Made by a program: the position numbers and the translations under genes. The notes below the pieces were generated by a model. That model made no database searches and was not told the DNA's origin. It saw only the letters and a list, made by a program, of their open reading frames with translations. A stretch of DNA of 64,000 nt from Candidatus Woesearchaeota archaeon (GTDB lineage Archaea > Nanobdellota > Nanobdellia > Woesearchaeales > JAGVYF01): the NCBI GenBank assembly GCA_041650315.1, contig JBAZLJ010000001.1:280259-344258 (forward strand), given 5' to 3'. Positions within the stretch are counted from its first letter, which is position 1; each line of letters starts with the position of its first letter. Below, in pieces: positions 153 through 61,668 of this stretch.

Positions 153-394
153 GGGCGTGTCCAGAATGCTTGTTGATACAAGCCAATGTCGTACAAGAAC
201 TGCTTTGCAGTTCTGTGCACAGGAGTACTTAGTACTCCTTGTGCCTCACATCTATTTCTTTAATATAATCTGCAGAATAGATTCTGCTAATTATTTGTAG
301 ATTAAGTATGTTCAGTATAGACATTGGTTCTGTCAGAGCTGAAGCTCTGAGTATGCTCAAAGCCGTAGCTTTGACACATTCTGGACACGTCCCG
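153..394. mobile_element. MITE-like non-autonomous element, copy A (~241 bp). Terminal inverted repeats are GGGCGTGTCCAGAATG (153-168) and CATTCTGGACACGTCCC (377-393); it is flanked by TAAAAA on both sides (147-152 and 395-400). No ORF of its own.
   Basis: Ends are near-perfect reverse complements (16/17). Internal sequence is shared with 50886-51026 and 9339-9397. The six-frame ORFs 29..220(-) and 229..420(-) lie inside or across it and look spurious. Confidence 0.6.
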
Positions 395-461
395 TAAAAA
401 CAAATATTTTTAAACTGCATTTGCTAGAATAGTACTAGTTATCTTATAATAATACAAAAAG

Positions 462-9305: not shown

Positions 9306-9338
9306 TTCTGATGGGCTCTGTAGAAAATCTCGTTATCA

Positions 9339-9397
9339 CACAAGAACTGCTATGCAGTTCTGTGCACAGAAGCACTTTGTGCTTCTTGTGCTCGCCA
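9339..9397. repeat. Partial copy of the MITE internal module: two adjacent palindromic hairpins (GAACTGC-WW-GCAGTTC, then GAAGCAC-TTT-GTGCTTC)
   Basis: Matches 193-248 of the element at 153-394. The first palindrome is identical. The second has complementary changes on both arms (GGAGTACT/AGTACTCC becomes GAAGCAC/GTGCTTC). No TIRs here. Confidence 0.55.
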
Positions 9398-9605
9398 CCA
9401 ACAGCAATTTGACCTTGCTAGGTCAATTCTCAAATAATGTTTGAGAAAATGTTGCTATTTCAAAAGTGAGGGTGCTATATCGTCATAGACTTCTATAACG
9501 CACTTGATGTTAGAATTGAGAACATTTTGAGAAGGTTGGTGGACTTTTCTACAAAGCCATTCTGATACAAAGTCTTATAAATAATCTATATTCTCTAGTA
9601 GCTAT

Positions 9606-11982: not shown

Positions 11983-13677
11983 ATGGAGGAATCACAAATG
12001 AAAGCGCTTAAAAACTTTTTAGTAATGGCTTTGGCCATGCTAGTGCTTGTAGTTAGTGCAAGTGCAGCGACTTCTTTGACCTTGACTGCTACACCTAGTG
12101 CAGTAACAGTTAACGAAGGTACAGAAGTAAGTATTAGTTTAACCGCAGCAAGCGGAAGTGGAGTATATGCTTACCAAATCACAGGTACAGATATCCCTGG
12201 AGTATCTAATGGAGCAATGACAAGTAATGTATTCACTTGGATCCCAGAATACCTAGAATCAGGAGTATATTTCATTAAATTCAAAGCAACTGAAGGCCCA
12301 AATGACAGCCCAGAATTGAATGTCGCAGTCACAGTCAACGATTATCAACCATTGACTATGGATGCAGATGTCTTAATCGGTGGTCCATCACAGCAAAGGA
12401 GCAATCCACATGCTGAAGATGACAGCAGAAAGACAGTATATGCTGAAAAAGTGTTCAAGATACACAACGACGGCGATTTAGACGTAGTTGTAAGCTTGGC
12501 AACCACAGCAGCATCAGAATATGATGTTACTTTGACACCAGCAACAGGTACAGCAGCAGCGGCTACAGTACCAGCTAACAGCGATCTTACTGTTACAGCA
12601 AAAGGCTTTGTCCCAAAAGACTTGCCATCATTCTTCCCAACAAGAGCTGACTATAATGATAGAAGGAATCTATTGGGCGAATTGAACGTTGCTACAACCA
12701 CATCAGGCATATCAGCATTCAAGACAAACTTGTACATGGAAGCTGAAAACCTATTGATTGCTAAGAAATTGTATGTTTCAGTTGATGGCGATGAGAACAA
12801 GGTATCAGACCTAGAAGAAATCGAAGATGTCAAACCTGACAGCGATGTAGAATTAAGAGTAATCGCTGAAAACAAATATGACAGCAACGACAATGAAGAT
12901 CTAGAGATGAACGATATCGTATTCAATGTCAGAGTAGATGACAGCGACCTAGATGTCGATGAAGACCTTGATTTCGAAGACCTCGGCGCAGAAGAAACAT
13001 CTGAAGATACTATTTCATTCCAGATGGACAGAACCGAAGTGACTGAATCAAATTACTACATGTACGCAGTATTGTCCGGCGAGGACGAGAACGGCGCAGT
13101 AATGGGTGAAAAATACACCATAGAACTTATGGTTGAAAGAAAAAGCCATGAAATCTTGGTAACAGATATCAGCATTTCACCTAGTGAACTAACATGCAAA
13201 GAAACAGCTACATTGAGATTCGATCTTGCTAATATCGGCAAGAAGAATGAAGATGAAGTGTCATTCAAAGTGGACAGCCCAGCATTGGGATTATCCAAAA
13301 TTGAATACGACATAGAGCTGGATACAAGCGATGATGTAACTAGATCAATACAAATTCCTTTGAAGAATGTTAAACCTGGCGATTATGACATCCAGATAAC
13401 TTCTTATTACAATAGGGACGATGTATCTAACGAAGAAATAGCAACATTGCACGTATCAGCATGCGCAACAACTGCACCAGTCGTGACACCAGTAGTAACT
13501 CCAGTAGTTACACCAGTCACAGGCAATACAGCAGTGCAACCACCAGTTACAATAATCCCAGAATTGGAAAGCTTCAATGATTTCCAGAACAGTACAATAT
13601 ATACTGTGCTATTGGGCGGACTTGTGCTAGTGTTGGCTATCGCATTAATAGTGTTGTTAGTCAAATTTGTCTTCTAG
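11983..13677 (+). CDS. Cell-surface protein: signal peptide, beta-rich domains, acidic region, Thr/Pro/Val linker and C-terminal TM anchor
   Basis: N-terminal hydrophobic LVMALAMLVLVVSASA. VVTPVVTPVVTPVT repeat. C-terminal LLGGLVLVLAIALIVLLV followed by stop. About 564 aa. Confidence 0.55.
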   Translation: MEESQMKALKNFLVMALAMLVLVVSASAATSLTLTATPSAVTVNEGTEVSISLTAASGSGVYAYQITGTDIPGVSNGAMTSNVFTWIPEYLESGVYFIKFKATEGPNDSPELNVAVTVNDYQPLTMDADVLIGGPSQQRSNPHAEDDSRKTVYAEKVFKIHNDGDLDVVVSLATTAASEYDVTLTPATGTAAAATVPANSDLTVTAKGFVPKDLPSFFPTRADYNDRRNLLGELNVATTTSGISAFKTNLYMEAENLLIAKKLYVSVDGDENKVSDLEEIEDVKPDSDVELRVIAENKYDSNDNEDLEMNDIVFNVRVDDSDLDVDEDLDFEDLGAEETSEDTISFQMDRTEVTESNYYMYAVLSGEDENGAVMGEKYTIELMVERKSHEILVTDISISPSELTCKETATLRFDLANIGKKNEDEVSFKVDSPALGLSKIEYDIELDTSDDVTRSIQIPLKNVKPGDYDIQITSYYNRDDVSNEEIATLHVSACATTAPVVTPVVTPVVTPVTGNTAVQPPVTIIPELESFNDFQNSTIYTVLLGGLVLVLAIALIVLLVKFVF

Positions 13678-13683
13678 AGACAA

Positions 13684-13720
13684 ATTTCTTTTTTTCTTTT
13701 TTATTATTCTCTTTTTCTTA
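13684..13720 (+). terminator. Oligo-T tract typical of archaeal intrinsic termination downstream of the surface-protein gene
   Basis: TTTCTTTTTTTCTTTTTTATTATTCTCTTTTTCTT immediately after the stop codon. Confidence 0.35.
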
Positions 13721-13729
13721 TAATTTAAT

Positions 13730-13850
13730 ATTTGCCATCAGTTCGCAAGCGTTTAGAATTAGTTGTAATTGGCCTTCCCTCGGATAGGGGACAACCTCCC
13801 TTGCCATTAATGCGTATTAAGCAGTATTTTGCTCACTAAGGATGGCAAAT
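13730..13850 (+). repeat. ~120-bp 'GCCATC element' copy 1: termini ATTTGCCATC / GATGGCAAAT, conserved core GGCCTTCCCTCGGATAGGGGACAACCTCCCTTGCC, conserved GCTCAC near the 3' end
   Basis: Shares ordered blocks with 32455-32585, 35388-35508 and (core only) 61553-61668. Ends 31 bp before the AMMECR1-like gene start. Confidence 0.55.
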
Positions 13851-13881
13851 ATTTATTAAGTAATTAGACGTAAGTTTCTCT

Positions 13882-32359: not shown

Positions 32360-32454
32360 GATATAATCACCTCAATTATATATAGGATATATACAGATTA
32401 TAATGTTTATAAATGTTTTGATGACTTCGAATTTGATGTTATTTTGCTTAGGTT

Positions 32455-32585
32455 TTGCTATCAGTTCTGCCATCGGTTCGCGTGCGCTTCTTGTTCGTGA
32501 TAACTGGCATTCTCCTGTAAGGAGCCCAACACCTCTTGCCGTTGGTTACATGTAGCACGATAGCGCTCACAGCCAGATGGCATAA
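32455..32585 (+). repeat. 'GCCATC element' copy 2 (tandem GCTATCAGTTC / GCCATCGGTTC 5' motif, core GGCATTCTCCTGTAAGGAGCCCAACACCTCTTGCC, 3' GCTCAC...GATGGCA)
   Basis: Block order and spacing match copies 1 and 3. The hairpin arms co-vary (CTCC/GGAG here, CCCT/AGGG in copy 1). Ends 75 bp before rpl10e. Confidence 0.55.
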
Positions 32586-32660
32586 TAACTGGAATATCAT
32601 TATTTAAGGCGTATAATAAACCAAAAGCTTTAAAAAGAGCTTAAATCTCCAGTATGCTCT

Positions 32661-35331: not shown

Positions 35332-35387
35332 ATATTCTATAGACTATAAGAGGGCTATATAAGGCTTACGTTGTCCGGTTAAGGTAA

Positions 35388-35508
35388 TTTTGCCATCAGT
35401 TCGCATCTACTTCAGATAGATGATAGCTGGCCTTTCCTTGTAAAGGAGCCAACATCCTTTGCCGCTGATGCACATTGAAAATAATTATGCTCACAATTGA
35501 TGGCAATA
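35388..35508 (+). repeat. 'GCCATC element' copy 3 (TTTTGCCATCAGTTCGC ... GGCCTTTCCTTGTAAAGGAGCCAACATCCTTTGCC ... GCTCAC AAT TGATGGCAA)
   Basis: Same ordered blocks as copies 1 and 2. Ends 58 bp upstream of the MinD/ParA gene. Confidence 0.55.
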
Positions 35509-35566
35509 TCTTCATCTAAATCTTAACCAAAAGCTTTATTAATACAAAAATTCAATTATTTACTAG

Positions 35567-61490: not shown

Positions 61491-61552
61491 GCTTACGTTT
61501 ATTTTTAAAGTTTATTGTTTTGCAGAGATTATTAAGTCTGGAAATGAATATA

Positions 61553-61668
61553 AAGTCTGCAAATGATAAATTTTCTACTTTCCAAGGCAATGACAGACAT
61601 TTCCCGTAGGGACAACCCCATTGTCTGTTCACTTCTTTAGTTATAAAATTTATAGTTGTTGCAGACTT
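61553..61668 (+). repeat. Diverged relative of the 'GCCATC element': termini AAGTCTGCAA / TTGCAGACTT, shared core TTCCCGTAGGGACAACCCCATTG
   Basis: The core matches TTCCCTCGGATAGGGGACAACCTCCCTTG of copy 1. Terminal inverted repeats differ. Ends 69 bp before the GT2 gene. Confidence 0.4.

Follow-up and report, generated by a model that had tools for sequence, protein, structure and literature searches.

The stretch of Woesearchaeota DNA analyzed here (64,000 nt; hereafter, the window) harbors four copies of a hairpin-forming element, c1 to c4, and two MITEs that lack the core of this element (Table 1). All four copies are in + orientation and lie upstream from a + strand gene; these include an AMMECR1-like gene (c1), rpl10e (c2) and minD/parA (c3). 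Elements c2, c3 and c4 are each located between divergent genes. The genes adjoining the elements are housekeeping genes with no functional relationship to one another.

Direct reading of the sequence located all four copies where the initial annotation had placed them. This annotation, made from the sequence of the window, described the copies as a single family with an ordered block structure, and both pattern and profile searches bear it out. The 3′ block (GCTCAC-N3-6-GATGGCA) gives three matches in the window versus none in 100 shuffles. The 5′ block (TTGCCATCRGTTCGC) is found exact at positions 13732 (c1) and 35390 (c3) and with one mismatch at 32467 (c2). A covariance model (R1) was trained on relatives from other genomes (see below) and on c1-c3, c4 being left out of the training set. 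When run over the whole 64 kb with the filters off, R1 detected only c1-c3 (64-67 bits) and c4 above noise, the latter being recovered at 48 bits (E about 1e-10) even though it had not contributed to the model. Some details of the original description needed adjusting. Element c2 proper starts at 32467/32468, and c1 extends to 13727-13853. Furthermore, the terminal blocks thought to be common to the four copies are shared by c1-c3, whereas c4 has a different outer stem (AAGTCTGCAA/TTGCAGACTT) and is devoid of the GTTCGC/GCTCAC motif. Nonetheless, c4 is the copy that best matches the apex of the family (apex profile E = 2.6e-4). No fifth copy was found in the 8.7 kb past one end of the window and the 6.9 kb past the other; thus, the source genome carries four diverged copies within the approximately 80 kb covered.

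Table 1. Position and makeup of the elements, their parts and the neighboring promoters in the window (numbered from its first nucleotide).
Feature	Position	Strand	Description
Core-less MITE, second copy	153..395	+	Terminal repeats GGGCGTGTCCAGAATG/CATTCTGGACACGTCCC; duplication GTAAAAA
Core-less MITE, 245 bp	9314..9558	+	Ends GGCTCTGTAGAAAATCTCG ... CTTTTCTACAAAGCC; duplication TTCTGAT(G/A)
c1, core only	13727..13853	+	R1 score 64.5 bits; 13-bp perfect inverted repeat at ends
c1 outer stem	13727-13739, 13841-13853	+	AATATTTGCCATC pairs with GATGGCAAATATT
c1 J motif	13741-13746, 13831-13836	+	GTTCGC, GCTCAC
c1 apex	13767-13808		P3 AAT-T-GGC/GCCATT; pyrimidine tract CTTCCCTC; loop GGATA; purine tract GGGGA; CAAC; pyrimidine tract CTCCCTT
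TATA-like box, AMMECR1-like gene	13852..13859	+	TTTATTAA, directly after c1; ATG 13882
Partial duplicate of 5′ block	32453..32467	+	TTTTGCTATCAGTTC; abuts c2; 3 mismatches at 32455
c2, core only	32468..32583	+	R1 score 63.5 bits
c2 outer stem and J motif			TGCCATC/GATGGCA; GTTCGC/GCTCAC
c2 apex			GGC-ATTCTCCT-GTA-AGGAG-CCCAACA-CCTCTT-GCC
BRE/TATA, rpl10e	32628..32637	+	AAAAGCTTTAAAAAG region; begins 45 nt past c2; ATG 32661
c3, core only	35387..35509	+	R1 score 66.7 bits
c3 outer stem			ATTTTGCCATC/GATGGCAATAT, one mismatch
c3 apex			GGC-CTTTCCTT-GTA-AAGGAG-CCAACA-TCCTTT-GCC
TATA box, minD/parA	35534..35541	+	TTTATTAA, preceded by AAAAGC; begins 25 nt past c3; ATG 35567
c4, diverged member	61553..61668	+	R1 score 48 bits; fold z = -5.28
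c4 apex, family type A			ACAGACA-TTTCCC-GTA-GGGA-CAAC-CCCAT-TGTCTGT

Each of the window copies can be folded into a long hairpin whose base is formed by the terminal inverted repeat. In c2 (fold energy -44.8 kcal/mol; z = -3.97), the variable arms pair nearly without a break and give the structure a rod shape. The partial 5′ block that abuts c2 seems to be left over from a second or tandem copy; in a relative from another genome (L107), elements are likewise arranged in tandem.

Promoters in the vicinity of the elements were read from the archaeal BRE/TATA consensus and from the spacing characteristic of leaderless mRNAs. According to this reading, a TATA-like box lies 22-26 nt before the ATG, beyond the element, at each of the four copies. 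Element c1 has the upstream gene's terminator hairpin and T-run on one side and, on the other, a TATA box located 23 nt ahead of the following ATG. Element c3 falls between two divergent promoters, with the TATA box of an NOG1-like gene at about 35357-35366 on one side and that of minD on the other. The motif AACCAAAAGCTTTA at the rpl10e promoter is also found downstream of c3. Because each downstream gene appears to have a TATA box of its own beyond the element, the window copies are predicted to lie upstream of promoters and not within 5′ leaders. No element is found upstream of minD in the nearest relatives (L134-L137; 60-65% MinD identity) and no copy scores significantly in about 83 kb of sequence from these organisms.

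Relatives of the window elements were sought with a pattern made of the two terminal blocks at the observed spacing. Scanning one genome per species yielded 34 loci, four of which, from GC-rich bacteria (L007, L010, L012, L026), were set aside, leaving 30. Scanning metagenomes yielded 98 loci, or about 95 after removal of three similar hits (L047, L053, L059). All of the discarded loci were judged to be chance matches due to composition. A scan of viral contigs produced no match. Overall, the pattern scans identified about 125 relatives. The plausible ones that carry a title come from Woesearchaeota or Nanoarchaeota, plus some MAGs binned as "Methanosarcinales" that are probably mislabelled.

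In most of these relatives, the approximately 105-nt core is housed in an element of 161-167 bp that ends in inverted repeats of 14-19 bp (GGCTCTGTCCTAAAT, AGGTTGGTGCGAAAT, GGCTGCGTTCAAAAT, GGCGTTATTGAAAAGT and others). The 5′ arm of the full element includes an extra segment (AAATCTCGC...GCTTCGGGTT). The outer repeats have at most one mismatch in most of the about 125 elements, and the variable end positions, which differ among subfamilies, change together at both ends. Exact direct repeats of 8-10 bp flank 48 elements (8, 9 and 10 bp in 12, 25 and 11 cases, respectively; mode 9), against a chance expectation of about 0.001-0.01 such duplications per element. A single MAG, JACRKL01, contains at least 14 near-identical copies belonging to two subfamilies, many of them at contig ends. 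The terminal inverted repeats, the duplications with a mode of 9 bp and the burst of near-identical copies within one genome identify the family as a MITE. No empty sites were found among the loci examined. Since most members of the collection were retrieved by requiring intact blocks, the invariance of the blocks is in part built in.

The window copies align to the core only (positions 31-145 of the 164-position full-length profile). The alignment of c1 is confined to positions 32-143, indicating that this copy is without transposon arms. No terminal inverted repeats extend beyond the 7-13 bp outer stem of the core in the window copies, the arms of the full-length profile do not align, and no target-site duplications are detectable around c1-c3. 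Hence, it is through homology of the core that the window copies are assigned to the MITE family. In c1-c3, the 28 nt of the terminal blocks are intact, the variable arms have no similarity to one another and the transposon arms are gone. Intact blocks beside saturated arms would not be expected of neutral relics. Either the core can move on its own without arms, or selection acts on it at these sites, perhaps for some host function.

The structure of the core was analyzed by aligning 111 distinct members, some of which had been found without the pattern, to the R1 model. In this alignment, 95% of the cells are paired and all of the 26 modelled pairs change on both sides. The covariation score, 0.414, compares to 0.110 in shuffles (0 of 500 reach the observed value) and to 0.10 or less when partners are slid. 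Thus, covariation strongly supports the pairing, and the co-varying central hairpin postulated at the outset stands: the arms read CCCU/GGGG, CUCCU/AGGAG and UCCUU/AAGGA in the window, and CUCC/GGAG, CUCCC/GGGAG and UUCC/GGAA are found in relatives. The outer stem of the core (P1) is GGUUGCCAUC/GAUGGCAACC. Diverged members replace it with other complementary pairs, such as GGGUUAGGUC/GACCUAACCC or, in c4, AAGUCUGCAA/UUGCAGACUU. Then follows the conserved motif GU-UC-GC/GC-UC-AC, which forms a 2x2 pyrimidine loop (two pyrimidine-pyrimidine mismatches) and an A-rich 3′ bulge; in one variant a U-A pair is changed to C-G. Variable arms separate this motif from a further stem, P3, which shows four or five pair types at each position. 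At the apex, a GNRA-like loop is preceded by a pyrimidine tract and followed by a purine tract and then by another pyrimidine tract. In type A, to which the four window copies belong, it reads GACAUUCCCC-GUAA-GGGAC-N-UCCCCCUUGUC. In type B, it is a 17-nt loop (UUCCCAUUGCAAUUUCC), invariant over at least six different P3 stems.

Cores fold below shuffles (mean z about -4). In 47 of 72 cores (P=0.003), folding is more favorable for the + strand than for the - strand, and the GNRA-like loop (GUAA, GUGA or GCAA) is found on the + strand only. Stems, on the other hand, show no strand asymmetry, G-U pairs being about as frequent as A-C. Because G-U is no commoner than A-C, the data are compatible with folding as RNA, as single-stranded DNA or as a cruciform. 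The initial annotation had also proposed that the purine-rich tract could switch to pairing with the 3′ pyrimidine tract. This pairing is possible, but its occurrence is not separable from tract composition (P=0.13). In the informative variants, the two pyrimidine tracts are mirror images of each other and not direct repeats. Mirror-image tracts are what a triple helix needs, while an alternative hairpin needs direct repeats. In permutation tests, however, neither the triple-helix nor the alternative-hairpin register at the apex was significant (P=0.07 and P=0.13, respectively).

Searching Rfam 15 produced no hit at gathering score in the window, and only chance-level matches, at E up to 10, on c1 and on two relatives (L005, L080). 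The window contains no tRNA or tmRNA. Inspection by eye for H/ACA, C/D-box or K-turn features revealed no ACA box past the lower stem, no conserved C/D boxes and no tandem G-A pairs. A guide RNA was also considered and dropped, as the variable arms match their own flanks or duplications no better than those of other elements. The core of approximately 105 nt is a new structured nucleic-acid motif, absent from Rfam.

The collection of relatives allowed the genomic context of the elements to be examined on a larger scale. Of 113 unique insertions, all but two lie between genes. Where a gene faces the element with its start codon, at least about 41-43 nt separate the two and 43-48 nt is the most common distance, whichever side of the element the gene is on. 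Moving outward from the element, one meets the 9-bp duplication, then about 6 nt of A-rich BRE followed by a TATA box, with the ATG about 25 nt further on, an order of signals that reads as the promoter of a leaderless mRNA. Of 79 insertions, 59 have a TATA-like octamer starting at an offset of 12-18 on one side or both (5′ side only, 22; 3′ side only, 32; P=0.22). Where the neighboring genes are in tandem (18 insertions), the TATA offset stays within 13-17 nt (interquartile range 15-15) and the distance to the upstream stop codon goes from -11 to 77. Since an element placed at random in the spacer would not always be flush with the promoter, we favor a promoter-anchored choice of the target. 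Strong selection in these very compact genomes is another possible source of the fixed TATA spacing.

These data bear on most of what had been proposed for the window copies. Placement is indeed far from random, the elements sitting between genes and beside promoters. In contrast, the family as a whole keeps no constant orientation toward the downstream gene: elements are oriented as the neighboring gene in 50 cases and opposite to it in 40, and show no significant preference for the TATA side. In light of this ratio, the co-orientation of the four window copies is within chance, a small-sample effect. A cis-regulatory element or leader had been thought more plausible than a MITE; the relatives, with their terminal repeats, 9-bp duplications and bursts of near-identical copies, argue for the MITE.

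The two core-less MITEs in the window shed light on the origin of the placement. The one at 9314..9558 has the end type that bears the core in other genomes, with a different interior; a TATA-like box starts about 16 nt past its 3′ end, ahead of the next ATG (9606). The MITE at 153..395 shares a 52-nt internal segment with it (88% identity) and has a TATA-like box about 13 nt past the 3′ end. As elements without the core show the same geometry, it is to the ends and the transposase, rather than to the core, that placement must be ascribed.

On the whole, we think it likely that the window elements are copies of the conserved hairpin center of a Woesearchaeota MITE family. The full element, about 163 bp, would comprise the approximately 105-nt center and two arms ending in 14-19 bp inverted repeats of the IS5/IS903 type. 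A DDE transposase acting in trans would move it by a cut-and-paste mechanism that leaves 9-bp duplications. We infer the IS5/IS903 affiliation from the ends and the length of the duplication, since about 0.9 Mb of loci yielded neither a transposase nor an inverted pair of ends 0.7-2.5 kb apart. Repeated ORF clusters, considered as a possible source of transposase, were found to be housekeeping genes by Pfam. Insertion would be anchored on the promoter, so that the duplicated 9 bp fall immediately before the BRE and about 15 nt separate the edge of the element from the start of the TATA box; the element could face either way. The hairpin structure is kept by selection and would serve as a cis-acting module of the element rather than as a regulator of the adjacent gene. 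The window copies, on this model, would be centers without arms or duplications that occupy the niche between the terminator or promoter of the previous gene and the BRE/TATA of the next. A further consideration counts against the MITE reading: transposition is not known to need a conserved, structured interior of 105 nt.

A more specific version of the model, which we regard as speculative and rather unlikely, posits that the archaeal pre-initiation complex directs integration to the very edge of the BRE/TATA, on its upstream side. One MITE lineage would carry a structured RNA module, possibly with a pyrimidine-purine-pyrimidine triple helix at the apex, which the host kept after decay of the arms. 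The window copies would then represent RNA genes or elements that have been domesticated next to promoters, in a genome of approximately 1 Mb.

The conserved interior could also be explained if the MITE carried a structured small RNA exapted by the host, the arm-less window copies being domesticated sRNA genes. The C-rich tracts (UCCC, CCUCC) and the conserved loops would then bind a protein or G-rich RNA targets, and the arms would be a mere vehicle. Such an RNA would account for strong covariation accompanied by sequence-conserved unpaired positions, most evident in the type-B loop; for the better folding of the + strand and the confinement to it of the GNRA-like loop; and for the persistence of the blocks in window copies whose arms and variable regions are lost or saturated. 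A TATA-like box is found about 30 nt upstream of the start of both c1 and c3. However, the box upstream of c3 is the divergent gene's own and, family-wide, the nearest TATA occurs on either side (22 versus 32), so no consistent promoter reads the + strand. The lack of G-U excess over A-C in the stems, of an Rfam match and of complementarity between the variable arms and their own flanks also weighs against the sRNA, and on balance we doubt that it is the explanation. The strand symmetry of the pairing would instead suit an element acting as DNA near the BRE, either a cruciform or a palindrome bound by a dimeric or architectural protein, that insulates or tunes the promoter, or blocks transcription both ways between closely packed genes, and that spread by transposition. 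The rigid place of the elements at the upstream edge of the BRE/TATA in either orientation, the palindromic centers of the apices (ATTGCAAT) and the T-runs after the hairpin on both strands are in line with such a role. Against it, the core-less MITEs share the placement, covariation of P3 and P1 points to intrastrand pairing and not to duplex recognition, archaeal termination is known to need only oligo-T, and the binding protein is hypothetical. A function exerted at the DNA level thus seems improbable to us.

The reading originally put forward for the window, a cis-regulatory 5′ leader akin to a riboswitch or thermosensor and controlling the downstream + strand gene through alternative pairings, is largely refuted and now appears highly improbable. 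It was prompted by the co-oriented position of the four copies upstream of + strand genes and by the ability of the purine tract in c1-c3 to pair with either pyrimidine tract. As seen above, the alternative pairing is not significant and the family faces both ways. Moreover, a BRE/TATA appears to lie between element and ATG at leaderless spacing, in the window as in relatives, with the start codon about 25 nt further on. Functionally unrelated neighbors, absence from orthologous minD loci and the target-site duplications of relatives are equally at odds with a leader. A MITE with a conserved hairpin center remains our preferred reading.

Comparison with known transposons places the full-length elements closest to IS903 and IS5. 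The IS903 end, as read from an annotated Klebsiella plasmid, is GGCTTTGTTGAATAAATC; the element end GGCTTTGTCCGAAAACTC is identical to it at 13 of 18 positions, including the first 8 bases. Ends of the subtype AGGTTGGTGCGAAAT appear similar to that of IS5 (GGAAGGTGCGAATAAG). More generally, the terminal repeats begin with GGC/GG, span 14-19 bp and have an A-rich distal half, as in IS903/IS5. IS903 generates 9-bp target-site duplications, which is also the mode in the present family. Unlike IS903 and IS5, the family resides in DPANN archaea, with no cognate transposase gene in the loci examined, and we know of no IS903 derivative with a conserved structured interior.

In size (100-170 bp), copy number, intergenic location and formation of long hairpins near genes, the elements are reminiscent of the Correia (CREE) elements of Neisseria and of the ERIC, RUP, BOX and REP sequences, which can alter neighboring transcription or RNA processing (see PMC10969869). 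Correia elements, however, have other ends and a TA duplication, and no fixed spacing to core promoters has been reported for them or the other bacterial repeats. Furthermore, the family differs from the bacterial hairpin MITEs in that the interior is more conserved than the ends. REP/REPIN sequences and PATEs, which derive from IS200/IS605, are likewise hairpins whose structure is conserved over sequence, and may be relevant to the arm-less cores that have no duplications. They make no target-site duplications and depend on Y1 (HUH) transposases, whereas the full-length relatives of the window elements have 9-bp duplications and DDE-type ends. A palindrome of the REP/REPIN or IS200/IS605 type was discounted for the family on account of the duplications and terminal repeats of these relatives, the arm-less copies being uninformative in this respect. 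Integron attC sites were also considered. Their consensus consists of R''/R' core sites RYYYAAC/GTTRRRY, located downstream of cassette ORFs. The blocks of the elements (GCCATC.GTTCGC/GCTCAC..GATGGC) and their housekeeping neighbors led us to reject this possibility.

Among archaea, the SM1-SM4 elements of Sulfolobus and the MITEs of Halobacterium and Haloquadratum are comparable in being non-autonomous IS derivatives that have terminal repeats and duplications and are mobilized in trans. The archaeal MITEs listed in a 2024 review come only from Sulfolobus, haloarchaea and a few others, and the insertion preference is described there simply as "intergenic" (PMC10969869). In contrast, DPANN MITEs figure in the literature that we searched only as counts, such as the 105 MITEs per Mb of one Woesearchaea genome (PMC11602168). 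This literature contains no description of the family, of its conserved core or of the TATA spacing. We thus consider as new a MITE with an interior better conserved than the ends and with insertions at the upstream edge of archaeal core promoters. The closest analogies for the placement come from Ty3, which targets Pol III start sites, from TRE5-A of Dictyostelium, which integrates about 48 bp upstream of tRNA genes, and from Tf1, P elements and mPing. All insert at a fixed short distance from a factor-bound promoter in either orientation, which allows them to inhabit compact genomes while leaving genes intact. All of these, whether retroelements or eukaryotic DNA transposons, are tethered by factors that have been identified, and the parallel is one of analogy, not of family membership. 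In the present case, the spacing suggests that tethering could be to TBP/TFB, with selection as the alternative.

The tiny, tightly packed genomes of DPANN archaea are ones in which mobile DNA and non-coding RNA are little known. The family described here illustrates a route by which a transposon may persist in such genomes, namely by using the spacer between the end of one gene and the BRE/TATA of the next with a precision of 13-17 nt. Should the spacing reflect targeting, it would represent, to our knowledge, the first case of transposition anchored on the promoter complex in archaea, and the insertions would provide a natural probe of TBP and TFB positions in uncultivated organisms. The core that persists without arms in the window is a candidate for domestication. 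On a practical note, the family accounts for contig breaks in Woesearchaeota MAGs and marks putative leaderless promoters.

The elements of this family appear to grow in modules. Longer variants found at five loci from other genomes or metagenomes span 187-201 bp and either carry the GGTTCGC...CTCACAAAATTGA motif twice, in nested layers, or possess an extra 5′-arm hairpin of about 35 nt ending in AATTCACGG. The elements at L029 and L034 resemble window copy c4, sharing with it a type-A apex (pyrimidine tract, GNRA-like loop, purine tract, second pyrimidine tract) on an altered stem; the apex is therefore the module most widely shared in the family.

Coordinates of core-less MITEs and variant elements
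Feature	Locus	Positions	Remarks
Core-less MITE	window	9314-9558	~245 bp; IS5/IS903-like ends; own target-site duplication
Core-less MITE, second copy	window	153-395	~245 bp; IS5/IS903-like ends; own target-site duplication
Longer variant	L011	5039-5227	
Longer variant	L016	4242-4428	
Longer variant	L014	5520-5711	
Longer variant	L006	3711-3911	
Longer variant	L037		
Usual ends, type-A apex	L029	3136-3298	different P1 (outer stem); GTTCGC/GCTCAC motif absent
Usual ends, type-A apex	L034	4933-5096	different P1; GTTCGC/GCTCAC motif absent

In the apex of window copies c1-c3 and of the elements at L017, L034 and L051, the 5′ pyrimidine tract mirrors the 3′ one (e.g., UUCUCC and CCUCUU). A pyrimidine-purine-pyrimidine triple helix matches such mirror symmetry more closely than an alternative hairpin does, but not to a statistically significant degree. 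Two half-copies (L094:86-141 and L048:2641-2698) stop exactly at the centre (CCCATTG|) of the palindrome of the type-B apex, the form with an invariant 17-nt loop, suggesting that the tip of the hairpin was where the element broke or underwent a deletion.

The downstream flanks of c2 and c3 have AACCAAAAGCTTTA in common (window 32619-32632 and 35526-35539); judging by its sequence, this motif is the likely BRE/TATA of rpl10e after c2 and of minD after c3. The start codons of both genes lie about 25 nt beyond this box, suggesting that mRNAs are leaderless throughout this genome. Both core-less MITEs lack the GCCATC core and are 88% identical to each other over an internal segment of 52 nt; the TATA-like box of the next gene lies 13-17 nt downstream of each.

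Other sequences adjoin the window copies. Just upstream of c1 lies the probable terminator of ORF 11983-13677: directly behind the stop codon come a perfect hairpin (13664-13700; AAATTTGTCT-TCTAG-AGACAAATTT) and then a long T-run. The hairpin also drew a chance-level Rfam match (SBWMV1_UPD-PKh, E = 0.11). Copy c2 is abutted by a partial duplicate of its 5′ block (32453-32467, TTTTGCTATCAGTTC), similar to the tandem start of a second copy at L107:186-213. Beside c4, AAGTCTGNAAATGA is present twice as a direct repeat (61535-61566), the second copy forming the 5′ arm of the c4 outer stem. Finally, in a related Woesearchaeota contig (L135/L136:3590-5638), the gene for a Lon-like protease contains a match to an intein-splicing domain and is split into two ORFs, an observation with no connection to the hairpin elements.
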